From Escherichia coli (lineage in GTDB: Bacteria > Pseudomonadota > Gammaproteobacteria > Enterobacterales > Enterobacteriaceae), in the NCBI RefSeq assembly GCF_011045215.1, contig NZ_CP049201.1: 64,000 nt of DNA. One strand, 5' to 3'. The notes under the pieces were generated by a model that was given only the letters and a program-made list of their open reading frames with translations, did not search any database and was not told the DNA's origin. Below, piece by piece: positions 2,540 through 60,576 of this stretch (the first letter of the stretch is position 1; the number at the start of each line of letters is the position of its first letter). A program made the translations under genes and the position numbers.

Positions 2540-3040
2540 ATGACAGAATCAACGTCCCGTCGCCCGGCATATGCTCGCCTGTTGGATCGTGCGGTACGCA
2601 TTCTGGCGGTGCGCGATCACAGTGAGCAAGAACTGCGACGTAAACTCGCGGCACCGATTATGGGCAAAAATGGCCCAGAAGAGATTGATGCTACGGCAGA
2701 AGATTACGAGCGCGTTATTGCCTGGTGCCATGAACATGGCTATCTCGATGACAGCCGATTTGTTGCGCGCTTTATCGCCAGCCGTAGCCGCAAAGGTTAT
2801 GGACCTGCGCGTATTCGCCAGGAACTGAATCAGAAAGGTATTTCCCGCGAAGCGACAGAAAAAGCGATGCGTGAATGTGACATCGACTGGTGCGCACTGG
2901 CGCGCGATCAGGCGACGCGAAAATATGGTGAACCTTTGCCAACTGTCTTTTCAGAAAAAGTTAAGATCCAGCGTTTTCTGCTCTATCGTGGCTATCTGAT
3001 GGAAGATATCCAGGATATTTGGCGAAATTTTGCCGACTGA
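2540..3040 (+). CDS. recX: RecA inhibitor RecX
   Basis: 166-aa [39 protein letters not shown]... directly downstream of recA. Confidence 0.95.
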
Positions 3041-3167
3041 ACGCATACGGTATTTTACTTCCCAGTCAAGAAAACTTATCTTATTCCCACTTTTCAGTTA
3101 CCAGCCCGGCGGTTAAGACACGCTGGAGCTGGTGGCGATATTTCGTTAGCTTGATTTCAGGATAATT

Positions 3168-5798
3168 ATGAGCAAGAGCACCGCTGAGATCCGTCAGGCG
3201 TTTCTCGACTTTTTCCATAGTAAGGGACATCAGGTAGTTGCCAGCAGCTCCCTGGTACCCCATAACGACCCAACTTTGTTGTTTACCAACGCCGGGATGA
3301 ACCAGTTCAAGGATGTGTTCCTTGGGCTCGACAAGCGTAATTATTCCCGCGCTACCACTTCCCAACGCTGCGTGCGTGCGGGTGGTAAACACAACGACCT
3401 GGAAAACGTCGGTTACACCGCGCGTCACCATACCTTCTTCGAAATGCTGGGCAACTTCAGCTTCGGCGACTATTTCAAACACGATGCCATTCAGTTTGCA
3501 TGGGAACTGCTGACCAGCGCAAATTGGTTTGCCCTGCCGAAAGAGCGTCTGTGGGTTACCGTCTATGAAAGCGACGACGAAGCCTACGAAATCTGGGAAA
3601 AAGAAGTCGGGATCCCGCGCGAACGTATTATTCGCATCGGCGATAACAAAGGTGCGCCATACGCATCTGACAACTTCTGGCAGATGGGTGACACTGGTCC
3701 GTGCGGCCCGTGCACCGAAATCTTCTACGATCACGGCGACCACATTTGGGGTGGCCCTCCGGGAAGTCCGGAAGAAGACGGCGACCGCTACATTGAGATC
3801 TGGAACATCGTCTTCATGCAGTTCAACCGCCAGGCCGATGGCACGATGGAACCGCTGCCGAAGCCGTCTGTAGATACCGGTATGGGTCTGGAGCGTATTG
3901 CTGCGGTGCTGCAACACGTTAACTCTAACTATGACATCGACCTGTTCCGCACGTTGATCCAGGCGGTAGCGAAAGTCACTGGCGCAACCGATCTGAGCAA
4001 TAAATCGCTGCGCGTAATCGCTGACCACATTCGTTCTTGTGCGTTCCTGATCGCGGATGGCGTAATGCCGTCCAATGAAAACCGTGGTTATGTACTGCGT
4101 CGTATCATTCGTCGCGCAGTGCGTCACGGTAATATGCTCGGCGCGAAAGAAACCTTCTTCTACAAACTGGTTGGTCCGCTGATCGACGTTATGGGCTCTG
4201 CGGGTGAAGACCTGAAACGCCAGCAGGCGCAGGTTGAGCAGGTGCTGAAGACTGAAGAAGAGCAGTTTGCTCGTACTCTGGAGCGCGGTCTGGCGTTGCT
4301 GGATGAAGAGCTGGCAAAACTTTCTGGTGATACGCTGGATGGTGAAACTGCTTTCCGTCTGTACGACACCTATGGCTTCCCGGTTGACCTGACGGCTGAT
4401 GTTTGTCGTGAGCGCAACATCAAAGTTGACGAAGCTGGTTTTGAAGCTGCAATGGAAGAGCAGCGTCGTCGCGCGCGCGAAGCCAGCGGCTTTGGTGCCG
4501 ATTACAACGCAATGATCCGTGTTGACAGTGCATCTGAATTTAAAGGCTATGACCATCTGGAACTGAACGGCAAAGTGACCGCGCTGTTTGTTGATGGTAA
4601 AGCGGTTGATGCCATCAATGCAGGCCAGGAAGCTGTGGTCGTGCTGGATCAAACGCCATTCTATGCGGAATCCGGCGGTCAGGTTGGTGATAAAGGCGAA
4701 CTGAAAGGCGCTAACTTCTCCTTCGTGGTGGAAGATACGCAGAAATACGGCCAGGCGATTGGTCACATCGGTAAACTTGCTGCGGGTTCTCTGAAAGTGG
4801 GCGACGCTGTGCAGGCTGATGTTGATGAGGCTCGTCGCGCCCGTATTCGTCTGAATCACTCCGCAACGCACCTGATGCATGCTGCGCTGCGCCAGGTTCT
4901 GGGTACTCATGTATCGCAGAAAGGTTCACTGGTTAACGACAAGGTGCTGCGCTTCGACTTCTCACACAACGAAGCGATGAAACCAGAAGAGATTCGTGCG
5001 GTCGAAGACCTGGTGAACGCACAGATTCGTCGCAATTTGCCGATCGAAACCAACATCATGGATCTCGAAGCGGCGAAAGCGAAAGGTGCGATGGCGCTGT
5101 TCGGCGAGAAGTATGATGAGCGCGTACGCGTGCTGAGCATGGGCGATTTCTCCACCGAGCTGTGTGGCGGTACTCACGCCAGCCGCACTGGTGATATTGG
5201 TCTGTTCCGCATCATCTCTGAATCGGGTACTGCTGCAGGCGTTCGTCGTATCGAAGCGGTAACCGGAGAAGGTGCTATCGCCACCGTTCATGCAGACAGC
5301 GATCGCTTAAGCGAAGTCGCGCATCTGCTGAAAGGCGATAGCAATAATCTGGCTGATAAAGTGCGCTCAGTACTGGAACGTACGCGTCAGTTAGAAAAAG
5401 AACTACAACAGCTTAAAGAACAAGCTGCCGCACAGGAGAGCGCAAATCTTTCCAGTAAGGCAATTGATGTTAATGGTGTTAAGCTGTTGGTTAGCGAGCT
5501 TAGCGGTGTTGAGCCGAAAATGTTGCGTACCATGGTTGACGATTTAAAAAATCAGCTGGGGTCGACAATTATCGTGCTGGCAACGGTAGCCGAAGGTAAG
5601 GTTTCTCTGATTGCAGGCGTATCTAAGGACGTCACAGATCGTGTGAAAGCAGGGGAACTGATTGGTATGGTCGCTCAGCAGGTGGGCGGCAAGGGTGGTG
5701 GACGTCCTGACATGGCGCAAGCCGGTGGTACGGATGCTGCGGCCTTACCTGCAGCGTTAGCCAGTGTGAAAGGCTGGGTCAGCGCGAAATTGCAATAA
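3168..5798 (+). CDS. alaS: alanine--tRNA ligase
   Basis: 876-aa [27 protein letters not shown]...; class II aaRS motifs; conserved position. Confidence 0.98.
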
Positions 5799-6032
5799 TA
5801 TAAGCGTCAGGCAATGCCGTGGACTCGCTTCACGGCATTCGCATTAACGCTATCGACAACGATAAAGTCAGGTTGAAGTTGTGTATATCGGCTAAACTTA
5901 GGTTTAACAGAATGTAATGCCATGACTGCTTAGATGTAATGTGTTTGTCATTGCTTACTTTTTGGCGTTATATGATGGATAATGCCGGGATACAGAGAGA
6001 CCCGACTCTTTTAATCTTTCAAGGAGCAAAGA

Positions 6033-6218
6033 ATGCTGATTCTGACTCGTCGAGTTGGTGAGACCCTCATGATTGGGGATGAGGTCACCGTGACAGTTTT
6101 AGGGGTAAAGGGCAACCAGGTACGTATTGGCGTAAATGCCCCGAAGGAAGTTTCTGTTCACCGTGAAGAGATCTACCAGCGTATCCAGGCTGAAAAATCC
6201 CAGCAGTCCAGTTACTAA
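6033..6218 (+). CDS. csrA: carbon storage regulator CsrA
   Basis: 61-aa [64 protein letters not shown]. Confidence 0.98.
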
Positions 6219-6226
6219 TCTTTCCG

Positions 6227-6252
6227 CGTCTCATCTTTATCGGTGAGACGCA
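6227..6252 (+). terminator. candidate csrA terminator hairpin (GCGTCTCA...TGAGACGC)
   Basis: Perfect 8-bp inverted repeat 9 nt after csrA stop; weak T-tract. Confidence 0.35.
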
Positions 6253-6533
6253 CCCTCAAAATTTCTCCTTCACTCTATAGTCTTTTCGCTTTACTCCCGT
6301 TCATTCAACTTAAGTCTCCATTTTTTTACATTACTGCTATCTGTCAGACCTCCGTTTTTCTGTTGATAAAACACTCTTTTTGACGTTTTTACAGACTAAT
6401 TGAGCGTGAAGTGTGCAAACGATAAAAGTGTGGGAAAAATTGTTTGACTTATAAGTCTCAGAAAGTAATATGTGCGCCACGCAGCGACGATGAGCGATAA
6501 ACAAGTTCTTCGAAGCACTCGTAAGAGGCGTGT

Positions 6534-6626
6534 GGTGAGGTGGCCGAGAGGCTGAAGGCGCTCCCCTGCTAAGGGAGTATGCGGTCAAAAGCTGCATCCG
6601 GGGTTCGAATCCCCGCCTCACCGCCA
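6534..6626 (+). tRNA. serV: tRNA-Ser (anticodon GCU)
   Basis: GGTGAGGTGGCCGAGAGGCTGAAGG...GGTTCGAATCCCCGCCTCACCGCCA with long variable arm; matches E. coli serV from memory. Confidence 0.95.
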
Positions 6627-6629
6627 TTT

Positions 6630-6706
6630 GCATCCGTAGCTCAGCTGGATAGAGTACTCGGCTACGAACCGAGCGGTCGGAGGTTCGAATCCTCCCGGAT
6701 GCACCA
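6630..6706 (+). tRNA. argV: tRNA-Arg (anticodon ACG), copy 1
   Basis: GCATCCGTAGCTCAGCTGGATAGAGTACTCGGCTACGAACCGAGCGGTCGGAGGTTCGAATCCTCCCGGATGCACCA, 77 nt. Confidence 0.95.
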
Positions 6707-6905
6707 TATTCTCCGAAATCTTCAGCAATGAAGATATCGAAGAGGTAGCGGAATTAACCGCAGGCACCAGGAAGGATAACGTTGCTTTAGCAACGGCCCG
6801 AAGGGCGAGCCGCAAGGCGAGTAATCCTCCCGGATGCACCATCTCTTACTTGATACGGCTTTAGTAGCGGTATCAAAAAATCTGCAGTAAAGTAAGTTTC
6901 CCGAT

Positions 6906-6982
6906 GCATCCGTAGCTCAGCTGGATAGAGTACTCGGCTACGAACCGAGCGGTCGGAGGTTCGAATCCTCCCGGATGCACCA
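6906..6982 (+). tRNA. argY: tRNA-Arg (anticodon ACG), copy 2
   Basis: Identical 77-nt tRNA-Arg sequence; symbol assigned by order only. Confidence 0.93.
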
Positions 6983-7181
6983 TATTCTCCGAAATCTTCA
7001 GCAATGAAGATATCGAAGAGGTAGCGGAATTAACCGCAGGCACCAGGAAGGATAACGTTGCTTTAGCAACGGCCCGAAGGGCGAGCCGCAAGGCGAGTAA
7101 TCCTCCCGGATGCACCATCTCTTACTTGATACGGCTTTAGTAGCGGTATCAAAAAATCTGCAGTAAAGTAAGTTTCCCGAT

Positions 7182-7258
7182 GCATCCGTAGCTCAGCTGG
7201 ATAGAGTACTCGGCTACGAACCGAGCGGTCGGAGGTTCGAATCCTCCCGGATGCACCA
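7182..7258 (+). tRNA. argZ: tRNA-Arg (anticodon ACG), copy 3
   Basis: Identical 77-nt tRNA-Arg sequence; symbol assigned by order only. Confidence 0.93.
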
Positions 7259-7457
7259 TATTCTCCGAAATCTTCAGCAATGAAGATATCGAAGAGGTAG
7301 CGGAATTAACCGCAGGCACCAGGAAGGATAACGTTGCTTTAGCAACGGCCCGAAGGGCGAGCCGCAAGGCGAGTAATCCTCCCGGATGCACCATCTCTTA
7401 CTTGATACGGCTTTAGTAGCGGTATCAAAAAATCTGCAGTAAAGTAAGTTTCCCGAT

Positions 7458-7534
7458 GCATCCGTAGCTCAGCTGGATAGAGTACTCGGCTACGAACCGA
7501 GCGGTCGGAGGTTCGAATCCTCCCGGATGCACCA
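7458..7534 (+). tRNA. argQ: tRNA-Arg (anticodon ACG), copy 4
   Basis: Identical 77-nt tRNA-Arg sequence; symbol assigned by order only. Confidence 0.93.
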
Positions 7535-7814
7535 TATTCTCCGAAATCTTCAGCAATGAAGATATCGAAGAGGTAGCGGAATTAACCGCAGGCACCAGGA
7601 AGGATAACGTTGCTTTAGCAACGGCCCGAAGGGCGAACGCCAGTGAGTCATCCTCCCGGATGCACCATCTTCTCCAAAAAATTTCCTTCAAAAATATCTC
7701 ATTTCTAAATAACTACTTTATCCATTTCCTGAATTTTCTTCTCCTTCGCCATCAGCGACAAAATCAAGCAATTACGCTAAAGTAGCGTCATATTTTTCGA
7801 CTTGCGAGAAGACC

Positions 7815-8381
7815 ATGTACGAGCGTTATGCAGGTTTAATTTTTGATATGGATGGCACAATCCTGGATACGGAGCCTACGCACCGTAAAGCGTGGCGCGA
7901 AGTATTAGGGCACTACGGTCTTCAGTACGATATTCAGGCGATGATTGCGCTTAATGGATCGCCCACCTGGCGTATTGCTCAGGCAATTATTGAGCTGAAT
8001 CAGGCCGATCTCGACCCGCATGCGTTAGCGCGTGAAAAAACAGAAGCAGTAAGAAGTATGCTGCTGGATAGTGTCGAGCCGCTTCCTCTTGTTGAAGTGG
8101 TGAAAAGTTGGCATGGTCGTCGCCCAATGGCTGTAGGAACGGGGAGTGAAAGCGCCATCGCTGAGGCATTGCTGGCGCACCTGGGATTACGTCGTTATTT
8201 TGACGCCGTCGTCGCTGCTGATCACGTCAAACACCATAAACCCGCGCCAGACACATTTTTGTTGTGCGCGCAGCGTATGGGCGTGCAACCGACGCAGTGT
8301 GTGGTCTTTGAAGATGCCGATTTCGGTATTCAGGCGGCCCGTGCCGCAGGCATGGACGCTGTGGATGTTCGCTTGCTGTGA
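7815..8381 (+). CDS. yqaB: HAD-family sugar phosphatase (fructose-1-phosphate phosphatase)
   Basis: 188-aa ORF with HAD motif I (IFDMDGTILDTE). Confidence 0.9.
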   Translation: MYERYAGLIFDMDGTILDTEPTHRKAWREVLGHYGLQYDIQAMIALNGSPTWRIAQAIIELNQADLDPHALAREKTEAVRSMLLDSVEPLPLVEVVKSWHGRRPMAVGTGSESAIAEALLAHLGLRRYFDAVVAADHVKHHKPAPDTFLLCAQRMGVQPTQCVVFEDADFGIQAARAAGMDAVDVRLL

Positions 8382-50303: not shown

Positions 50304-50352
50304 GTTGAGGCAGTATATTGAAACAATGAGAATGAATCACACATATAAGCTC

Positions 50353-51345
50353 TCACAATCTTCCGCCGTTTTTGACTGTTGCAGATATACTTTTAGCAGG
50401 TTTTAAATGCCTGGAGATTTCTTTCTGTTCTCGACGGATTTTGTATGAATTAATTTCTTCATAATCCTTGTGTTTATTTATTTTTGATAAATCAACCAAG
50501 AGATTATTTCTTATCATCCACTTTACAATTCGCTTGTTGATATCTTTATAGAGAGGGCCGCCTTTATATTTATAGAAGTGAATATCATGAATTTCACTGA
50601 TGAAATCAAGTATGGATAAGATTTCTTTATAATCACCAATGTAACTGTTAATGGTGAAATGGTCTTTATTAAGTTCTATTTTGAATCCATGTTCAGAAAG
50701 GTAATACAAGAAAAAGGCTGAGTCGAGATCACAAAAATCTACATGCAGCGTTCTTCTGTCAAATTTATCAATATGCGAGAGAATGATATCATGTAATTCA
50801 TAATCATATACATTTTCAATAAATCCTTTCCCTGAATGATCAATTTGATTGACATTGCATCCAGCATCTATTGCTACGGATAAAACTTCCGGGGAAAGGG
50901 GCATGAAGAGAATATTCATTCCTTTTTTATCGATGTGATTTATATCACAACCAGCATTAATTAATTCTGTCAATCCTTCAGCATTCCTGTAATGTTCAAA
51001 AATGCATGTGTAGCCATTAGTATCCGTATGCGAGGTGTCTAAACCCAGTTCAATCAGTTTCTTCAGTATTTCTGGATTTTTTTGATGAAAGAGCGCATTT
51101 TGCCCATGTCCGTTGATATGGTGTATATTAATTCCATAACTGAGCAGGCAATCCATGGCTTCCAGGGTTCTGCAGGCAAAAATGGCATTGTTGCCGTTAC
51201 TGTTAACAGCATTGATGTCATAGCCTATTTTTAAAGCTTTCTTTATATCATCAGGTGATCTTGCATTGAAGAATGATTCAGAAATGGCAAGGTCTAATGC
51301 CTTTTCTAATAATCCCTTTTGTAATAAGGATATGACTAATTCCAT
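50353..51345 (-). CDS. ankyrin-repeat protein with uncharacterised C-terminal domain
   Basis: ORF 50353..51357; about five degenerate ANK-like repeats (NSNGNNAIFAC..., NGHGQNALFH..., TNGYTCIFEH..., KKGMNILFMP..., HSGKGFIENV...); second ATG at 51345 has GGGGGTG RBS. Confidence 0.7.
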   Translation of the reverse strand: MELVISLLQKGLLEKALDLAISESFFNARSPDDIKKALKIGYDINAVNSNGNNAIFACRTLEAMDCLLSYGINIHHINGHGQNALFHQKNPEILKKLIELGLDTSHTDTNGYTCIFEHYRNAEGLTELINAGCDINHIDKKGMNILFMPLSPEVLSVAIDAGCNVNQIDHSGKGFIENVYDYELHDIILSHIDKFDRRTLHVDFCDLDSAFFLYYLSEHGFKIELNKDHFTINSYIGDYKEILSILDFISEIHDIHFYKYKGGPLYKDINKRIVKWMIRNNLLVDLSKINKHKDYEEINSYKIRREQKEISRHLKPAKSISATVKNGGRL

Positions 51346-51565
51346 AAACACCCCCATGAAAAAATGTTTAAGTCATTAGATATCAGAAATTCTGTGAAAT
51401 GCAACAGCTGGGGAAAGGTGTTCATGATGTGCGGAATAAAAATTTCCACAAACCACCCGTGGATACATCAGAAACACCTGCAGTAAATTTACGCCTGTAA
51501 CCTGCCGTCCGGACTATAGGACCAAACCTTCGCGGGAGATGCTACCATTACATCGGCAATGTTGA

Positions 51566-52102: not shown

Positions 52103-52957
52103 TTGAAAAACTGGTCACCAGAGCATACTAAAGAAATCAAAGCTTGGCTTGACATAGATAACTATCGCAAGCTCGAAGACATCAGTTTAAATGCCTTGTA
52201 TCACGAACTTTGGGCAAGAGCACTTCTGTACAAGCCTGGGCCTACTGACGAAGAAAAGAAAGGGCTATGGGTGTACATGACTGAAATTTTCAGTGGGAAC
52301 CCCCATCTTTTCAAAGGGAAGCATCTCGATTATCCAACAGTTAACGATACTCTCTACAGTCCTCCACACATTTTTATCACGGATATCACCAGGCTTGCTG
52401 AACTTAGTGTGATGGCTCTTAGTGTGAATCTTTTCACCTGGGAGGAAGGAAACGATGAATATTGTGTTAATGCGCCTCATCACGAAGCTTATGTGTCACA
52501 ACTCTTGTCCCCCTTATGTGAGAAAACGGTGTTGCTTGAAATCGATCTTGGTAGTGGTACTGACGATGAAATAGCCGAATCGATAAAAGCGGCCCTGCCA
52601 CAATGGAGATCGGTAAAAGGAGTGGAAGTTAATGAAACCGGTATCGTTCGTTTCGGCTATGGAACCATTAAAAAAATTATAAATTACAGGTTGGTTGCGA
52701 TGCTGGACATCTTACTTTGGGCAAAAAGGAAAGAACTAAGAATCTCAGATGATCGCCTCTCCCGGCTTCTTTATACTGATGAAGATGAAGAAACAACTAC
52801 CCGTTTAGGGTATCACATTAAAGACTCAGATCGTCCGCTTGCGATGAAAGCTGCAACGATAGACTTCATTAGGCAGTTCAATTTTTTCATGAACCGAAAT
52901 CCCCACCTGAAAAACATGAGAGTTTCAGATGTGATGAAACTCTCTGATTCTAACTGA
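52103..52957 (+). CDS. hypothetical island protein upstream of alpA
   Basis: 284-aa ORF, TTG start with GGAG RBS; no recognised domain. Confidence 0.55.
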   Translation: MKNWSPEHTKEIKAWLDIDNYRKLEDISLNALYHELWARALLYKPGPTDEEKKGLWVYMTEIFSGNPHLFKGKHLDYPTVNDTLYSPPHIFITDITRLAELSVMALSVNLFTWEEGNDEYCVNAPHHEAYVSQLLSPLCEKTVLLEIDLGSGTDDEIAESIKAALPQWRSVKGVEVNETGIVRFGYGTIKKIINYRLVAMLDILLWAKRKELRISDDRLSRLLYTDEDEETTTRLGYHIKDSDRPLAMKAATIDFIRQFNFFMNRNPHLKNMRVSDVMKLSDSN

Positions 52958-53079: not shown

Positions 53080-53286
53080 ATGAACAATCAAAATACCCGC
53101 CTAATTCGCTTGCCAGAAGTTATGAACAGAACCGGCTATGGCAAGGCCTGGATTTATCGTCTAATCAACGAAGGTTTATTTCCACAACCAATAAAAATTG
53201 GTTCGCGTGCAATTGCATTTGTCGAAAGCGAAGTAGATGAATGGATCGCATCTGCAATTGAACGTTCACGTAAAAATGCAGCCTGA
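53080..53286 (+). CDS. alpA: AlpA-family prophage/island transcriptional regulator (excision control)
   Basis: ORF 53047..53286; from MNNQNTRLIRLPEVMNRTGYGKAWIYRLINEGLFPQPIKIGSRAIAFVESEVDEWI, close to the AlpA/MerR-like HTH family. Confidence 0.85.
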   Translation: MNNQNTRLIRLPEVMNRTGYGKAWIYRLINEGLFPQPIKIGSRAIAFVESEVDEWIASAIERSRKNAA

Positions 53287-54878: not shown

Positions 54879-55337
54879 AATGGCTCCTTTTTTATTATTG
54901 TGATAACAGATATGGCATATTAAATTTGTTTGTCAATATTATTAGTAATAAAAATTTTAAAATATTATATTTATTGCTCTGTGATTATTTTTTTAGTGAA
55001 ATATTAAGGGTTGTCAGAGTTATTACGAAGGGTGCTAAATTTCACCATCACCCGTTATGTCATTAATAATTTTTGGTTCTGAAAGATACAACCAATATTC
55101 TATCTTAACTTGTTGATGTAATTGATTAATTTTCTTTTTGTATTTGCAAGATAAAAGAGTGATAAAGAAACAAGAAACCGAAATTTAGCTTTAGACTGAC
55201 ACAAAATTCCATTGTACACAGTTTGATAAACACTGCTATTGCTGATTTTCCTTCGTAATATTATTCCTTAAGTGAAGCCTGCGCACCTGTATGTTGCGCC
55301 ACTGGGCTTCAGAACATTGCTATAGTGTTTAACTGTC

Positions 55338-55430
55338 AGTAGAAATACGCTTCGCGCAGGAGTTCAGACAGTTGGGTTTAGCTCTCAGCACAAATACGCT
55401 TCGCGCAGAGATTCAGACTGCTGAGTTTAG
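55338..55430. repeat. two tandem ~45-bp imperfect direct repeats (AGTAGAAATACGCTTCGCGCAGGAGTTCAGACAGTTGGGTTTAGC / AGCACAAATACGCTTCGCGCAGAGATTCAGACTGCTGAGTTTAGC)
   Basis: Read directly; followed at 55474..55668 by interleaved inverted repeats. Confidence 0.8.
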
Positions 55431-55872
55431 CGAAAGAGTGGACCCGACTACATGATTTACCCGTTAACTTAATACGGCTCACGCCGGAACCCCTTCGGAA
55501 AAATCCTTTCTGCTTCAGCGAGTGAGTGCTGTGGGCACTCAGCGGCGCTGCAAGAGGGATTAAACGTTGGGTTTTCATCTGACGGGTAAAAATAATCTAC
55601 ATATATCTGTCGTCGGGGGCGTGAGCCGGTGCGTAGCACTCTCTCAGAAAAATTCCTGAAGGGGTTTTATCTGAAATCTGGAAACTACCTGGCTTTTGAA
55701 AAAAGGAAGTGGTAATGCAATCGATCGGACTCAACATTGCAACAGCGTAAGCTGTTTCCAGTATTAAAAGAATAAATAGTTGTCATTTTAAAATAAAATA
55801 TTTTCAATTTTGTATTGATTTAAATTTTAAAGCTGATAGTACTTAATTATAAAAACAAAAAAGGAGAGGGTT

Positions 55873-56045
55873 ATGAGTAATATTTTTGTTTCTTCTCAGG
55901 AAGAAAAGTTTATATTTGTTGTTGATAAATATATAACACAGCATCGCGACAGTGTTAATAACAATATTTTTTACAGAAAACTTTATGTGCTTTTCGCTGG
56001 ATACCATCTGAAGTATTTTTATTCACGGGCGCAATATCGCAATTC
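55873..56045 (+). pseudogene. 5' fragment of a gene truncated by the IS21-family insertion
   Basis: Strong RBS AAGGAGAGGG plus ATG at 55873; reading frame runs into the IS terminal repeats. Confidence 0.45.
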
Positions 56046-56151
56046 GTGTTATTGCGTATTCCGCTCTATTCGATCACGGATTGGCATCGAAGTTCGATCA
56101 GCGATTCGCATCCATTCGATCAACCGGGAACTTAACTTTTTCTACCGCTTT

Positions 56152-56907
56152 TTAACTCGTTTTTTCGCTGCTTTCCACTGTCGGGGGATTTTTCCTCAGG
56201 GACTCTCCCTGAAGGACCACTCTGTGTGAGTTATGTACCAGTCTGTCCAGGATGGCATCTGCTGTTGTTGGGTTCTCCATCAGACCATGCCATTTATCTA
56301 CCGGGAACTGGCTTACCACTATCGTGCTGCTTTGTCCGTAACGATCCTCTGTGATCTCCAGAAGGTCATTACACTGGGCGTTACTTAACTGTTCCAGCCC
56401 CAGATCGTCCAGGATTAGAACCTGTATTTTTTGCAACTGTTTCAGATATTTCAGCCAACTGCCATCAACACGTCCCTGAGCCAACTGTTCCAGTAATCGC
56501 CCGGTTCTACAGTACCGGACGCTGTATTTCTGTCGACATGCCTGTTCGCCCAGCGCATTGGCTATCCAGCTCTTACCGCATCCTGTCGGACCGGTTATCA
56601 GTAGGTTTTTCCTGTGGATTATGTAGTGGCCGTTCAGCAGTTCCCTCATCTGTTCAGCCCGCAGACCTCTTGAGGCCGGATAACGCAGCCCTTCCGGTGT
56701 TGCCTGATATTTCAGGCAGGCATTTTTTCTCAACCGTGCCACACGACTGTTTTCTCTGCTCAGAAGCTCGTCATCAACCAGCAGTGTCAGCCTTTCCTCG
56801 AACGACAGTTCGTCGTAAGTCTGAGGCGTTTCCCGTTGCCGTATCAGGCTCCCGGCCATCGCCGGGAGTTTCAGTTGGGTCAGTTTGTTTAACAGATTAT
56901 CACTCAT
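56152..56907 (-). CDS. istB: IS21-family helper ATPase IstB
   Basis: ORF 56152..57150; Walker A LLITGPTGCGKSWIANALG; start taken at MSDNLLNKLTQLKLP. Confidence 0.85.
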   Translation of the reverse strand: MSDNLLNKLTQLKLPAMAGSLIRQRETPQTYDELSFEERLTLLVDDELLSRENSRVARLRKNACLKYQATPEGLRYPASRGLRAEQMRELLNGHYIIHRKNLLITGPTGCGKSWIANALGEQACRQKYSVRYCRTGRLLEQLAQGRVDGSWLKYLKQLQKIQVLILDDLGLEQLSNAQCNDLLEITEDRYGQSSTIVVSQFPVDKWHGLMENPTTADAILDRLVHNSHRVVLQGESLRKNPPTVESSEKTS

Positions 56908-56923
56908 ACGGTTGTTCCTTCTG

Positions 56924-58591
56924 TCAGTGGTAGTAGCCAGGACCACGCAGGTTTTCATGCTCTGAAGCATATGCCGGATGTTGTTCGCCCTGGCGGGATA
57001 ACGGAAGCTCAACGTTATCCCGATGATGACGCAGCAGATTGTCGATAAAGCGTCTGTCCGGGGCGTTATAGTGCAGGGCAACGTAACAGGCCTTTTCCAG
57101 CCGTTCCGGGCCGTATTTTTTCTGAAGTGCCAGCAGACCCAGGACTGCACGGTAAGCCAGCTCCGGATGGGGTTTGGCTTTCAGCATGGATTCAACCACC
57201 CGGCCTGTGGACGGACCTGTACGGTTTCCCTGCTCGATAAGGCGTTCCGGTGTCCATGTCCCATGCCGCCGGTGGCGTTCTGGCATGTGAAGCGGATTGG
57301 TTGTGTGTTTATATTCATGTGTGCTGCGCGGATGTTGCGCCACACACTGCCCCTTGTGCCAGAGCTGTACCACCGACTGCCCCACCTTCAGTGACAGACG
57401 CTGACCGACCAGTTCGTGTGGAACGGAGTACCAGTGACGGGCATATTCAACGTGGTAGTCAGGGCCAACCTTCACGGCTTTGTATTCCGTGTATTCATAA
57501 GGCTCCAGAGGCAGCGGAGAGAGTGCTGGTGCATCCAGCATGCGGAAGCGTTCTGCGCGGGTTTGATTACCGTATCCCTTCATTGGTCGGTTATTCATGT
57601 CCGTCAGCAACTCCCGAAGGCGTGCATTCAGCGCCCTGAGCGTGTGGAAGGTTTCATTACGGATGCGGGCAAGAAGCCATCGCTCGACGATGAGGACGCC
57701 GTTTTCTGCTTTTGGTTTATCTTTAGGTTTGCGCGGGCGGGCCGGGATAATAACCGTGCCATAGTGCTCAGCCAGCGCCTGATAACTGTCGTTGATGACA
57801 GGCTCATAGCGATCGGCTTTTTTCACTGCGCTTCTGAGGTTATCGGGGATGAGCAGCTTCGGTACGCCGCCCAGGAAGGTCAGGCAACGGCTGTGGGCAT
57901 TTAACCATGACATCATGTCCTGACCTTCGCACGCTTCAACATAGGTATAGTTGGACGCCCCCATTACAGCCACGAAGATTGCCACGCGGCGTATCTCTCC
58001 GGTGTCCGGATTAATAACAGGGACCGTAGGACCACAGAAGTCGATAAAGAGCTTTTCGCCAGCACGATGCTCCTGTCGCATGGAGAGGCGTCGCGTTTTT
58101 TTCCACTTCCGGTAGCAACGGCAGAAGTGTGAGTATCCCATCGCTTTGTCACCCGCCTGTGCCTTGTATTCCATCCACAACAGTTGGCGCGTCACGCCAG
58201 GTTTTCTCATTTCCGTATCGAAGTACAGCATGTCAGGCATAACAAGCTCTGACGCAGAGGTGTCTTTGGGCGGGAAAATGAGTTTCTCCAGCGTGTCATG
58301 GGATATATCAGCAGGTAATGGCCATGACAGAGAAGAGGCTTTGAAGCGGGCAAGAACCTCAAAAACGGTTGAGGCGCTGATGTGTAACGTCAGTCCGATA
58401 CAACGGTTAGTCAGCTTCTTATCGAACTTGAGCTGAAGGATCTTAAAACAAGTTTCCATAGTGCTCCTGGATTTTCTCTTTTTGGACATTGACGTCTCCA
58501 CTGGTTTAAACACGGCAATGGAGACTGTGGTGAAAAGAGTTAATTCCCGGAGTGACTGGCGAATTCCAATCAATGATCGGAAGTATGCCAA
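56924..58591 (-). CDS. istA: IS21-family transposase IstA
   Basis: 555-aa ORF with integrase core upstream of istB; true start probably an internal Met (MSKKRK... or METCFK...). Confidence 0.8.
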   Translation of the reverse strand: MAYFRSLIGIRQSLRELTLFTTVSIAVFKPVETSMSKKRKSRSTMETCFKILQLKFDKKLTNRCIGLTLHISASTVFEVLARFKASSLSWPLPADISHDTLEKLIFPPKDTSASELVMPDMLYFDTEMRKPGVTRQLLWMEYKAQAGDKAMGYSHFCRCYRKWKKTRRLSMRQEHRAGEKLFIDFCGPTVPVINPDTGEIRRVAIFVAVMGASNYTYVEACEGQDMMSWLNAHSRCLTFLGGVPKLLIPDNLRSAVKKADRYEPVINDSYQALAEHYGTVIIPARPRKPKDKPKAENGVLIVERWLLARIRNETFHTLRALNARLRELLTDMNNRPMKGYGNQTRAERFRMLDAPALSPLPLEPYEYTEYKAVKVGPDYHVEYARHWYSVPHELVGQRLSLKVGQSVVQLWHKGQCVAQHPRSTHEYKHTTNPLHMPERHRRHGTWTPERLIEQGNRTGPSTGRVVESMLKAKPHPELAYRAVLGLLALQKKYGPERLEKACYVALHYNAPDRRFIDNLLRHHRDNVELPLSRQGEQHPAYASEHENLRGPGYYH

Positions 58592-58614
58592 ATCGTGATC
58601 GATTGTGATGCCAA

Positions 58615-60104
58615 CATATCCTTACCCATAAATCCGAGTGATGTTATTCTGTTGATAAATTAACCATAATTTAGAGGAACTATGGAAAACTGGGTTATTA
58701 AGGAGCTGGAATCTCTGAATGTTGGTGATATCAGGCTCGAAAAGCGAATAAAGCACGTTCTCAGTGTGCTTAGCCGTTCACCAAAGGAAAGTATTCCCGT
58801 ATCCTGCCGTACCTGGAGTGAGACAAAAGCTGCTTATCGTTGCTTTTCCAGTGATAAAATTTCAGCCGATAAAATCATGGCTCCCCATAAGAAAAATATC
58901 ATCGAAAGGACTAAACAGTTTAAACGGGCTCTGGTTTTACAGGATACGACTGAACTAAATTATTCTGGTCAAAAAAAGAAACAGGGCGTCGGTCCCAGAC
59001 GACATGAAAATGAGCGAGATTTGTTTATTCACCCTCAATTGGTTATAAGTGATTCAGGTATTTGCTTAGGGGTTTATGATGATTATCAATGGTTCAGAAA
59101 AGAACTCAAAACTCAGAAACAAAGTCGTAAAGAAATAACTAATGATTCACTTCACAGGAAACATATCAGTGAGAAAGAAACAGGACGGTGGATAGAAGGA
59201 TATAAAAAAGCAACAGAACTGGCTAGGTCCTGTCCTGATACCCAGATAATTTCTGTTTCAGACCGTGAAGGTGATATTTACGACCTCTTTGAGAGTGCAG
59301 AAAATGAAAGTGGGATAAAGGCTGACTGGCTCGTAAGAATGAAGAGCATTAACCGGGCTATACTGAATTCATCAGGAAAAAGAGACTCATTACTCCTGAA
59401 TGAAAAAATGATGCAGATTTTGCCACAGCAGATAATTGAGTTTACCCTTCCGGAAGGACGAGGACAACCTTCCCGCAAAGTCCAGCAGGAGCTACGCTTA
59501 GCAAGGTTGACGCTACATCCACCCACCGGTCGAAGAGGAAAGTTACGTTGTTCTCCGGTAACGGTAACTGTATTACTTGCAAAGGAAATAAATGCTCCAG
59601 AAAGTGTCCAGCCATTAGTATGGTGGCTAATGAGTAGTGTACCTCCAGAAAAGCTGACGGAACCCGCACAGCTTATTCAATGGTATTTATTACGCTGGCA
59701 GATTGAAGTTTTCTTTAAGGTATTAAAAAGCGGATGTCAGGTTGAGAAATTACAACTTGAGACATTTGAACGCACAAGGAACTGTCTGGCCTTATACCTT
59801 ATAATCTCATGGAGAATACTTTATCTTAGCTCATTGTATAAAATGGTTCCGGAGGAACCCTGTGATTTAATTTTCGAAAAGAAAGAATATGAGTATCTCT
59901 GGATATTGGTAGAGAATACGCCTCCACCTGAAAACATACCGAATATAAGAACGGCGGTTTTAATGCTTGCAAGATTAGGAGGATATCTGGCAAGAAAAAA
60001 TGATTCGCCTCCAGGCCCTAAGACTATATGGTCAGGATTAACACAATTAATGCTGTCAATTAATGCCATAGAAATAGCCCAGAAAACTTGTGGGTAAGGG
60101 TATG
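58615..60104 (+). mobile_element. IS4-family (IS50/Tn5-like) insertion sequence, 1490 bp, flanked by 9-bp target duplication TGATGCCAA (58606..58614 and 60105..60113)
   Basis: Direct repeats read directly; imperfect terminal inverted repeats CATATCCTTACCCATAAATCC / CATACCCTTACCCACAAGTTT; 9-bp duplication is the size expected for IS50. Confidence 0.75.
58682..60097 (+). CDS. IS4-family DDE transposase (Tn5 Tnp-like)
   Basis: 471-aa ORF; YLLRWQIEVFFKVLKSGCQVEKLQLE parallels Tn5 YTHRWRIEEFHKAWKTGAGAERQRME; LMLARLGGYLARK parallels MAIARLGGFMDSK. Confidence 0.85.
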   Translation: MENWVIKELESLNVGDIRLEKRIKHVLSVLSRSPKESIPVSCRTWSETKAAYRCFSSDKISADKIMAPHKKNIIERTKQFKRALVLQDTTELNYSGQKKKQGVGPRRHENERDLFIHPQLVISDSGICLGVYDDYQWFRKELKTQKQSRKEITNDSLHRKHISEKETGRWIEGYKKATELARSCPDTQIISVSDREGDIYDLFESAENESGIKADWLVRMKSINRAILNSSGKRDSLLLNEKMMQILPQQIIEFTLPEGRGQPSRKVQQELRLARLTLHPPTGRRGKLRCSPVTVTVLLAKEINAPESVQPLVWWLMSSVPPEKLTEPAQLIQWYLLRWQIEVFFKVLKSGCQVEKLQLETFERTRNCLALYLIISWRILYLSSLYKMVPEEPCDLIFEKKEYEYLWILVENTPPPENIPNIRTAVLMLARLGGYLARKNDSPPGPKTIWSGLTQLMLSINAIEIAQKTCG

Positions 60105-60576
60105 TGATGCCAAACTGTGATCGGAGATGGATGCCAAATCATGATCGATTCGAATGCCAAACTGCGATCGATTCAGATGCCATTTTGCAGTTATCACGTT
60201 GATAATATCATGCAGATGTTTATGGGTGTCGTTTCTACCCTGAAGGCCCCTCTGCTCAGGCAACTCGCAAACAGTGACACATTACTGCATTGCCTGAATT
60301 CGCTCGTGAATTATATTTCAGGCAATCTGGATGAAGCAGAGCACATTTATGCTGATTTACTGGCACAGTATGAAAAGAAACGCATTGCACGTTCTCTGGC
60401 TTATACACCACCAGGATCCGTGGTCAGGAAAAGGCTGTGAGGCAGCGGATACGTACTGGACAGGGGATGGCAGAGTGACATAAAAGCAGTCGTTTCCCGC
60501 AAGACATTACCGGGCATTAAAAAGGCAGGAGCCACCGGTCTGGTGTCCTGCCTGGCGGGATTGTTTTACTGTGGTC

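Follow-up and report, generated by a model that had tools for sequence, protein, structure and literature searches.

It is close to certain, in our assessment, that X141, a conserved and probably backbone gene of a mobilizable genomic island in Escherichia coli, lost its function when the IS21-family element ISSso4 recently transposed into it. The locus lies in a 64,000-nucleotide stretch of E. coli DNA, which is referred to as the window. X141 is one gene cut in two by the insertion sequence (IS), and intact homologues exist elsewhere. The first-pass annotation of the window had proposed such a split of an island gene, and the two fragments indeed join into a 141-aa open reading frame (ORF). 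The event is an ordinary, recent, textbook IS knockout of a hypothetical gene. Its main use is in annotation, where it yields one pseudogene, two nested ISs, and exact boundaries.

The 5' part of X141 comprises codons 1-60 and occupies 55873..56052 of the plus strand, as given by the ORF list and in-silico excision. The ribosome-binding site AAGGAG and the ATG at 55873, from which the gene had been annotated to start, are both present in the sequence. Specifically, the Shine-Dalgarno-like AAGGAG is read at 55861..55866 on the plus strand, six nucleotides 5' of the ATG. The ORF 55873..56229 begins MSNIFVSSQEEKF, and beyond codon 60 it continues into the IS to form a 118-aa fusion ORF. The native X141 sequence stops at 56053, where the IS21-family end, TGCGTATTCC, starts. 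The 3' part, consisting of codons 61-141 and the stop codon, is located at 60195..60440 on the plus strand. It belongs to the mechanically called ORF 60117..60440, which starts with a GTG within the IS end and ends AQYEKKRIARSLAYTPPGSVVRKRL. This ORF had been suggested as the 3' remainder, and its segment 60195..60440 is in frame with the 5' part. The composite IS is flanked on both sides by a perfect 5-bp duplication, GTTAT, read directly at 56048..56052 and 60190..60194. Excision of 56053..60194, i.e. the IS plus one GTTAT copy, gives a single continuous 141-aa ORF. The earlier proposal to remove 56046..60196 misplaced the boundaries, and that deletion stays in frame only because nine extra bases are removed, with the loss of C59-Y60-H61. 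Downstream of X141, a consensus scan places terminator-like hairpins of both strands at 60524..60561, in the interval between X141 and the convergent lipoprotein gene.

The restored 1,409-bp site aligns to E. coli chromosomes as one ungapped match over 100% of its length, with a best identity of 99.9%. It is covered to at least 80% at one place in 131 E. coli genomes. Because the restored query with one GTTAT matches as one ungapped piece, GTTAT is single-copy in the uninterrupted site. The uninterrupted joined sequence is also found in 13 species-representative genomes. In E. coli, the intact gene is annotated as WP_000065074.1, a hypothetical protein of 141 aa, and the intact allele of E. 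coli 19AR1724, located at 1142338-1142763 of NZ_CP195804.1, differs from the restored X141 at one of 423 nucleotides. The restored protein is 99% identical to the family protein P0001, and an alignment of 22 full-length homologues (61-99% identity) is gap-free across the junction. The restored protein fits the 139-143-aa family over the full length without gaps, including the EEKF, GYHLKY, HVDNIMQMF, and C-terminal RKRL motifs. The IS junction at codons 60/61 falls in the most conserved motif of X141, NSC[YF]/HVDNIMQMF (the slash marks the junction), which is made up of invariant or almost invariant positions. X141 is under purifying selection, with a dN/dS of about 0.1 (0.10-0.15 against eight orthologues, over the whole 141 codons). 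The low dN/dS together with the single nucleotide difference argues that X141 is a real gene that has not decayed since the insertion. Among 5,426 complete E. coli genomes, the same insertion in X141 does not occur, and the window allele might be used as a strain marker; no record of the 118-aa fusion ORF was found either. A megablast of the restored site against 72,556 plasmids gave no match. Hence, a plasmid origin was rejected and the locus is taken to be chromosomal.

The insertion is a 4,137-bp composite on the minus strand (56053..60189), with the istB-distal end at 56053 and the istA-proximal tip at 60189. Its termini are TGC... and ...GCA, and both ends are made of imperfect multi-repeats. 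The first-pass assignment to the IS21 family holds, the element being ISSso4, but the insert is not a single element: it contains a nested 1,490-bp IS4/Tn5-like IS, which is itself flanked by a 9-bp duplication. Without the nested element, ISSso4 is 2,638 bp long. Its parts are 99.88-99.96% identical to other or uninterrupted ISSso4 copies (L004, L002). On the minus strand istA is followed by istB, and both genes are intact. The 511-aa transposase IstA (56924..58459, minus strand) matches NCBIfam transpos_IS21 (1.7e-85; 287 bits versus a cutoff of 160), Pfam Mu-transpos_C_2 above its cutoff, and Pfam rve slightly below its cutoff; RefSeq names the product 'IS21-like element ISSso4 family transposase'. 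The 251-aa helper ATPase IstB (56152..56907, minus strand; coordinates carried over from the RefSeq annotation of L002) matches Pfam IstB_IS21 (1.2e-59) and NCBIfam IS21_help_AAA (1.3e-74; 250.8 bits versus a cutoff of 200). The ISSso4 ends carry the repeat family D1, with five copies of a ATGCCAAA..GATCG unit, and the inverted-repeat pairs I1, I12, I13, and I18; the element's termini read TGCG.../...TGCA. The istA-proximal end tip (60114..60189, minus strand) has three 23-bp repeat units contiguous with the terminus ...TTTTGCA. A multi-repeat organisation of the terminal inverted repeats and a 5-bp target repeat have been reported for the IS21 family (PMC10122671). The insert resembles ISSso4 in having istA, istB, TG...CA termini, a ~23-bp repeat array at either end, and a 5-bp duplication, as well as in its 99.9% identity to other E. 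coli ISSso4 copies. It differs in the 1,490-bp IS4-family element within the istA-proximal repeat array, and in its insertion site, X141, which is absent as such among the 5,426 complete genomes.

The nested element extends from 58615 to 60104 on the plus strand, with its ends defined by a comparison of 13 loci. It is bounded by terminal inverted repeats CATAYCCTTACCCAYAA, the two ends being CATATCCTTACCCATAA and CATACCCTTACCCACAA. Its transposase gene (58682-60097, plus strand) is intact and encodes 471 aa. The product matches Pfam Tnp_DNA_bind, DDE_Tnp_1, and Dimer_Tnp_Tn5 (PF14706, PF01609, and PF02281, all passing their cutoffs) and NCBIfam transpos_IS4_3 (1.5e-103; 347 bits versus a cutoff of 160). 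RefSeq labels it 'IS4 family transposase' only, without an ISfinder name. The Tn5-type DNA-binding N-terminus, the DDE_Tnp_1 core, and the Tn5 dimerisation domain, along with short terminal inverted repeats and a 9-bp target-site duplication (TSD), are features shared with Tn5/IS50-like members of the IS4 family. The duplication, TGATGCCAA, is found at 58606..58614, within the ISSso4 istA-proximal repeat array, and at 60105..60113, as placed by locus comparison. It is single-copy at the corresponding position in uninterrupted ISSso4 (L004). The insertion point is the fourth 23-bp repeat of the istA-proximal end.

Two insertions account for this arrangement. ISSso4 transposed between codons 60 and 61 of X141, generating the GTTAT duplication, and the IS4/Tn5-like element entered the ISSso4 istA-proximal end, either before or after ISSso4 reached X141, generating the TGATGCCAA duplication. 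If before, the composite moved into X141 as one unit; if after, ISSso4 arrived first and the IS4 element inserted in place. Movement as one unit is possible, but we consider it doubtful. The three tip-proximal repeats still adjoin the terminus unbroken, which could leave this ISSso4 end usable for IstA; the terminal L1/L2 repeats used by the IS21 synaptic complex (PMC10122671) are undisturbed in the window, and istA and istB are intact. Elsewhere on the chromosome in GCA_014105865.1 (L035), an ISSso4 end that appears identical also carries the nested element at this site and in this orientation. Against this, the IS4 element occupies several sites in ISSso4 ends in both orientations, with three different IS4/ISSso4 configurations within one assembly (L033, L034, L035). 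In strain C5, moreover, the IS4 element matches that of the window at 100% identity, but the ISSso4 hosting it reaches only 96.3%. The varied sites and the mismatch in identity indicate that repeated in-place insertions of the IS4 element are clearly common.

X141 had also been described as a cargo gene of unknown function. The second half of this description stands, and the word 'cargo' is probably wrong in view of synteny and purifying selection. In the window, X141 is convergent with two lipoprotein genes (60577-60897 and 60924-61322, minus strand), which are followed by a relaxase gene (61821-63050, minus strand) with weak matches to NCBIfam MobP, MobB, and MbpB; the L010 homologue of the relaxase matches PF03432. 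The arrangement of X141 facing one or more lipoprotein genes, the relaxase, and a 134-aa protein recurs in Kluyvera, Citrobacter, Superficieibacter, Phytobacter, Pseudocitrobacter, Salmonella diarizonae, Dryocola, two CP046293/LR134116 loci, and E. coli, and the convergent order is kept in most related loci having enough flank. As the position of X141 beside the lipoprotein/relaxase module is constant while the defence-type genes around it vary between related islands, X141 is probably island backbone rather than cargo. We rate it as rather unlikely that X141 is instead accessory cargo such as an anti-phage or anti-defence gene, whose loss would leave the mobility of the island unaffected. Anti-defence genes typically encode small helical orphans, the part of the island in the window has a SIR2-domain gene and ankyrin-repeat genes, and related islands carry type I restriction-modification, TIR, ThsB-TIR, and caspase-like genes. 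These points are countered by the lack of any PADLOC or PHROG match for X141 and by its fixed position relative to the mobilization/lipoprotein module across islands with completely different cargo.

The island has a GC content of 0.42, compared with 0.51 in the flanking core, and extends past the window end. The part seen has a relaxase and no type IV secretion system (T4SS), and neither an integrase nor att sites were found in the part within the window. A candidate integrase beside tRNA(CAT) at 39588 was rejected, since the ORF 40415-41764 belongs to DUF5507/DUF5508, and the 1,620-aa ORF encodes an autotransporter of the AIDA type. The island resembles ROD21-like (EARL) islands in having an AlpA-type HTH gene (RefSeq, in the matching E. 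coli island), a relaxase, low GC, and a lipoprotein annotated as 'SEN1984 family' after a ROD21 locus tag. For ROD21, excision and mobilization by helper plasmids have been described. EARL islands are located at tRNA-Asn, and their gene content includes TraD, type IV pilins, and relaxases of the MobA/MobL type (PMC6035254). In contrast, the X141 island adjoins a ypjA-like autotransporter region, and its relaxase has no MobA/MobL-type match; the window holds no tRNA-Asn, and no TraD or pilin gene is found in 48-64 kb. Membership in the EARL/ROD21 group, prompted by the 'SEN1984 family lipoprotein' label, was therefore rejected, as the defining features are lacking and only that label is shared. 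Upstream of X141, the region 55470-55680 is conserved and contains a stable, invariant hairpin, but a structured RNA was rejected given essentially no covariation (covariation term +0.64; double change in 3 of 33 pairs) and no Rfam match. The region may be regarded as a cis element, for which an oriT/oriV site is as likely as an RNA.

The X141 sequence was searched against Pfam, NCBIfam, PHROGs, and PADLOC and, by profile, against PDB, with either no match or E>0.1. Of five AF2 models only two are confident, and no neighbour by fold was found for the six-helix model. When 1.84 billion representatives were searched exhaustively with a profile, 28 proteins were returned, of which the two weakest are repetitive and evidently spurious. 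X141 represents a small orphan family confined to Enterobacterales and tied to the mobilization module of mobilizable islands that carry defence genes. Its C-terminal tail is disordered, rich in Arg/Lys, and ends in RKRL; we take this basic tail to resemble the positively charged signals of T4SS substrates. As a tentative guess, held at low confidence, X141 could be an accessory protein of the island mobilization module. The guess draws on synteny, in that X141 remains beside the lipoprotein/relaxase block also in islands with a different upstream module, and on the RKRL tail. X141 is a candidate for a transfer or establishment function, for which the window would supply a natural null allele.

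The consequence of the insertion for X141 can be read from the junctions. The 118-aa fusion would consist of 60 native residues, covering helices 1-2 only, and 58 IS-encoded residues, and the 3' fragment would be left without a promoter or a ribosome-binding site. The window X141 is accordingly inferred to be a loss-of-function allele, and the ISSso4 hit to be recent. It is very unlikely that the outcome is other than a simple knockout, with a promoter at the IS end driving a truncated X141 (residues 66-141), or with the fusion being newly active. A weak promoter-like hybrid does span the junction at 60184-60211 with 9 of 12 matches; it combines TTTGCA from the IS tip (60184-60189) with TATCAT (60206-60211), and the two are 16 nt apart. 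In-frame ATGs lie at 60210, 60216, and 60222, and the truncated product would start at M66. Shuffled sequence, however, gives about as many promoter-like hits (9.7 +/- 3.1) as the region itself (11), and none of these ATGs is preceded by a Shine-Dalgarno sequence. Two of the six helices would also be absent from the product, as would the N-terminal EEKF/DKYI motifs, which are invariant. Practically no chance is left for two unrelated ORFs merely flanking the IS and joining by a coincidence of reading frame: although one third of random deletions keep the frame, and the imprecise deletion did so too, this is refuted by the uninterrupted genomes (131 E. coli and 13 species-representative), the homologues gap-free over the junction, and the dN/dS across 141 codons, besides the perfect 5-bp TSD being single-copy in intact alleles.

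Beyond the window, almost all examined contexts of the nested IS4 element are end repeats of IS21-family elements (ISSso4, ISEc12). The contexts read came from 23 contigs, and according to the protein index 364 collection blocks contain the transposase. When species-representative genomes were scanned for the right end of the IS4 element, no match was obtained. Within IS21-family ends, the element uses at least three sites in both orientations and in two different hosts, with a loose consensus NRATGYYAW. Aside from TGATGCCAA in the window, the 9-bp TSDs at other loci are GAATGCCAA and ATAACATCG. One IS4 derivative is flanked by two inverted 38-bp ISSso4 tips and might be mobilisable by IstA. 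The near-exclusive location in such end repeats, at several sites and in both orientations, suggests that the IS4 element has a target preference for IS21-family ends, whose istA-proximal multi-repeat array is presumably the IstA binding region. IS50 and IS10, unlike the nested element, are not known for such a concentration in IS21-family ends. We lean slightly towards a reading in which the IS4 element would be a specialised 'IS hunter' preferring IS21-family istA-proximal arrays. Separately, X141 could be a protein of the transfer module whose basic C-terminus acts as a signal of the T4SS type.

IS4321/IS5075 insert at a single position and in a single orientation. They are a precedent for an IS whose favoured target lies at the end of a different transposable element (Partridge & Hall, 2003, via PMC8269217). 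The likeness to the nested element lies in this preferred target, and the differences are in the transposase, which is IS110/IS1111 in the former and DDE IS4 in the latter, and in the use by the IS4 element of at least three sites, two IS21-family hosts, both orientations, and ordinary 9-bp duplications. If its target specificity is confirmed, the IS4 element would be the second transposon-end-targeting IS, after IS4321/IS5075 and Tn21, and a mechanistically different one with its DDE transposase and 9-bp TSD.

X141, a split 141-aa gene of a putative mobilizable island, begins on the plus strand with the ORF 55873..56229 (start MSNIFVSSQEEKF...). A Shine-Dalgarno-like AAGGAG, read from the sequence at 55861-55866, lies 6 nt ahead of its ATG at 55873. 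The 3′ part is in the plus-strand ORF 60117..60440 (end ...AQYEKKRIARSLAYTPPGSVVRKRL). These signals and both ORFs are present as the first-pass annotation described them. A perfect 5-bp direct repeat, GTTAT, flanks the intervening IS21-family element at 56048-56052 and 60190-60194. Excision of 56053..60194, comprising the element and one repeat copy, gives an uninterrupted 141-aa ORF, in which ...NSCY is joined to HVDNIMQMF.... The excision proposed earlier, 56046..60196, likewise leaves a continuous in-frame ORF, yet its boundaries are inexact, as nine extra bases are removed and CYH is lost. On E. coli chromosomes, the restored 1,409-bp site aligns in full (100% of its length) and without gaps as a single piece, with identity up to 99.9%, and at least 80% of it is covered in 131 of 5,426 complete E. 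coli genomes; a plasmid search with the same sequence gave no matches. E. coli 19AR1724 carries an intact allele (426 nt), annotated as hypothetical protein WP_000065074.1, from which the window halves differ by 1 nucleotide in 423. Twenty-two full-length homologues from E. coli, Salmonella, Klebsiella, Citrobacter, and Enterobacter (61-99% identity) are gap-free over the junction, and the insertion point is inside the best conserved motif, NSC[YF]/HVDNIMQMF (slash, insertion point). The restored ORF, the perfect repeat, and the gap-free proteins bear out the earlier proposal that one gene was split by an IS21-family insertion. Pairwise dN/dS of X141 against eight orthologues is 0.10-0.15, which argues that X141 is a real protein-coding gene and that the insertion is recent enough for no decay to have ensued. 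The insertion was seen in none of the 5,426 complete E. coli genomes. Coverage of the 4.9-kb query reaches 80% or more in only two records, and both begin at the IS boundary, at other loci.

X141 is best read as an orphan gene knocked out by a recent and unremarkable IS insertion. The 5′ fragment has 60 native residues followed by 58 IS-encoded ones, and in the six-helix model the native part is predicted to span helices 1-2 only. The 118-aa fusion ORF is absent from the gene-position index. The 3′ fragment is cut off by the insertion from the promoter and ribosome-binding site of the gene. A promoter-like hybrid at 60184-60211 consists of an IS-terminal TTTGCA, a 16-nt spacer, and TATCAT in the flanking gene sequence. 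It matches the consensus at 9 of 12 positions, and such matches are not commoner in the region than in shuffles. Given the state of both fragments and a junction match not above shuffles, we infer that the window X141 is a null allele.

The gene had been described as of unassigned function, and this description stands: searches of Pfam, NCBIfam, PHROGs, PADLOC, and PDB sequences gave no match for X141. When 1.84 billion cluster representatives were searched exhaustively with a profile, only 28 proteins were recovered, among them five full-length but distant relatives (139-143 aa). These five share EEK[FL]..[ILV]DK[YF]I, GY[HY]LKY, and an Arg/Lys-rich tail that terminates in RL or RF. The conserved basic, disordered C-terminus of X141 resembles the positively charged signals of T4SS substrates. 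As a low-confidence guess, X141 might be a transfer or establishment accessory protein. This family is one of two leads from the analysis.

The insert is of the IS21 family, as first described, but it is not a single element. The outer element extends from 56053 (TGCGTATTCC...) to 60189 (...CCATTTTGCA), its ends being read directly from the sequence, and is named ISSso4 after the RefSeq annotation of near-identical copies. Both ends are arrays of ~23-bp repeats in inverted orientation with the unit ATGCCAAA..GATCG (repeat family D1; pairs I1, I12, I13, and I18). Three ORFs lie between the X141 fragments, two on the minus strand and one on the plus strand. The minus-strand ORFs, istA (56924-58459, 511 aa) and istB (56152-56907, 251 aa), are both open and have IstA/IstB signatures (NCBIfam transpos_IS21, 1.7e-85, and IS21_help_AAA, 1.3e-74; Pfam IstB_IS21, 1.2e-59). 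Five-bp duplications are reported for the IS21 family (PMC10122671), and the outer IS agrees with the family in every feature that could be tested. The plus-strand ORF encodes a 471-aa Tn5-type transposase (NCBIfam transpos_IS4_3, 1.5e-103; Pfam Tnp_DNA_bind, DDE_Tnp_1, and Dimer_Tnp_Tn5). It belongs to a nested 1,490-bp element at 58615-60104, which has the features of the IS4 family and was delimited by comparison with the uninterrupted ISSso4 copy at L004. This element interrupts the istA-proximal end in its fourth repeat unit, has the terminal inverted repeats CATAYCCTTACCCAYAA, and is flanked by a 9-bp duplication, TGATGCCAA, at 58606-58614 and 60105-60113. The uninterrupted ISSso4 is 2,638 bp, so the lengths add up (2,638 + 1,490 + 9 = 4,137 bp), and identity between the window copy and L004 or another copy, L002, is 99.88-99.96%. 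The IstA synaptic complex engages the terminal L1/L2 repeats (PMC10122671), and the three ISSso4 repeat units nearest the terminus are still contiguous with the tip; hence, the composite may still be mobile. ISSso4 could have entered X141 first and then been struck by the IS4 element, or the composite could have moved as a unit, and the window is compatible with either order.

We then surveyed the contexts of the IS4 element in 13 loci and three metagenome contigs with informative flanks (window 58606-60113, L002, L003, L011, L027-L038, and L040). Among complete E. coli genomes, the four copies of at least 99.9% identity all lie in ISSso4-type ends, and so does the one examined (L011) of 29 copies with ~96.9% identity; two metagenome contigs with a ~96.9% copy have the same flanks as L011. 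The contexts include site A, TGATGCCAA, with insertions in either orientation, site B, GAATGCCAA, a form recombinant between A and B, and a target duplication ATAACATCG in the end repeats of ISEc12, a different IS21-family element (L027 and L032). At L029, the element is outside any IS21 context and has no duplication. At L031 (GCA_900479185.1, UCWK01000004.1; ~2930-4500 of the locus), it lies between two inverted 38-bp ISSso4 tips, in the order TGCAAAATGGCATCTGAATCGATCGCAGTTTGGCATTC, IS4, GAATGCCAAACTGCGATCGATTCAGATGCCATTTTGCA, a structure that IstA might mobilise as a mini-element. A single assembly contains three ISSso4 copies, each struck differently (L033-L035), and in strain C5 the IS4 copy is 100% identical to that of the window, whereas the ISSso4 that hosts it reaches only 96.3% identity. 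These configurations and identities favour insertion on repeated, independent occasions over the inheritance of a single composite. Since the element is in istA-proximal arrays of ISSso4 or ISEc12 in almost every context examined, at three or more sites and in both orientations, with three configurations in one assembly, a target preference for IS21-family ends is suggested. A precedent for an IS targeting the ends of another transposon is IS4321/IS5075 at Tn21-family inverted repeats (cited in PMC8269217), whose transposase is of a different family. No description of IS4-element siting in IS21-family ends was found in the searchable literature, whose coverage is incomplete. This apparent targeting is the other lead.

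The island is ordered as follows: a DUF6387 gene (52103-52957), an AlpA-type HTH gene (~53080-53286, coordinates transferred from comparison locus L001), a 91-aa ORF, a minus-strand 101-aa ORF, a minus-strand 187-aa HTH protein with weak HTH_36 and phage-O N-terminal matches, a non-coding gap of ~1 kb, and X141. Convergent with X141, on the minus strand, are two lipoprotein genes and another 91-aa ORF, followed by the relaxase (61821-63050, minus strand) and a 134-aa protein. Variable genes, among them defence-type ones, flank the X141 block. In the window (variable part 48112-51357), these encode SIR2-domain and ankyrin-repeat proteins; in relatives (L001, L005, and L010), the variable part has genes for type I restriction-modification, ThsB-TIR, TIR, a caspase-like peptidase C14, and a PycTM-like protein. 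The convergent placement of X141 and the lipoprotein(s) and relaxase recurs in most related loci with sufficient flanking sequence (Kluyvera, Citrobacter, Superficieibacter, Phytobacter, Pseudocitrobacter, Salmonella diarizonae, Dryocola, two loci of CP046293/LR134116, and E. coli), and it persists where the upstream HTH/gap module gives way to a recombinase operon. Because this arrangement is kept even with the upstream module swapped, X141 behaves as part of the island backbone, linked to the mobilization module. The earlier label of cargo is therefore probably wrong, X141 having a fixed position beside the lipoprotein/relaxase block; the earlier interpretation is otherwise essentially right, and what is refined is where the insertion begins and ends, the presence of a nested IS, and this backbone status.

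In the distant island relatives L005, L006, and L010 (~3090-7900 of each), the recombinase operon comprises two adjacent tyrosine recombinases and proteins of ~610-625 aa and ~130-140 aa, the latter two having no Pfam match. X141 is ~100-130 bp downstream in the same orientation. The relaxase contains nine Pro-Val dipeptides (PVPVPV..., 62150-62200); it has 407 aa in 19AR1724 vs 409 aa in the window, and therefore the repeat number may vary. The window island resembles integrative mobilizable elements, with its integrase and att sites presumably outside the window. ROD21-like (EARL) islands have tRNA-Asn integration, a MobA/MobL relaxase with TraD, and type IV pilin genes (PMC6035254); on that definition, membership of the window island was rejected, and what they have in common is the 'SEN1984 family' lipoprotein label. 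A tRNA with anticodon CAT at 39588-39663 is called Met by ARAGORN and, from its position, is probably of ileX/ileY type. The region after it was considered for an integrase, and 40415-47433 instead encodes a DUF5507/DUF5508 protein followed by an AIDA-type autotransporter of 1,620 aa. In 19AR1724, the island SIR2 gene directly adjoins glaH, so this strain is without the tRNA-proximal stretch (39588-39663 and 40415-47433).

The best conserved part of the ~1-kb gap is 55454-55680, with a column identity of 0.84-0.95. It contains an invariant extended hairpin, CAGCGAGTGAGTGC TGTG GGCACTCAGCGGCGCTG, enclosed by the long-range complementary arms GGCTCACGCC and GGCGTGAGCC. As this part has no Rfam match and essentially no covariation, it could represent a cis-acting DNA site, such as oriT or oriV, or an RNA. 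Two tandem 49-nt repeats at 55327-55424, 80% identical with the core AAATACGCTTCGCGCAG, look iteron-like and sit in the gap adjoining the 187-aa HTH protein with weak phage-O N-terminal similarity.
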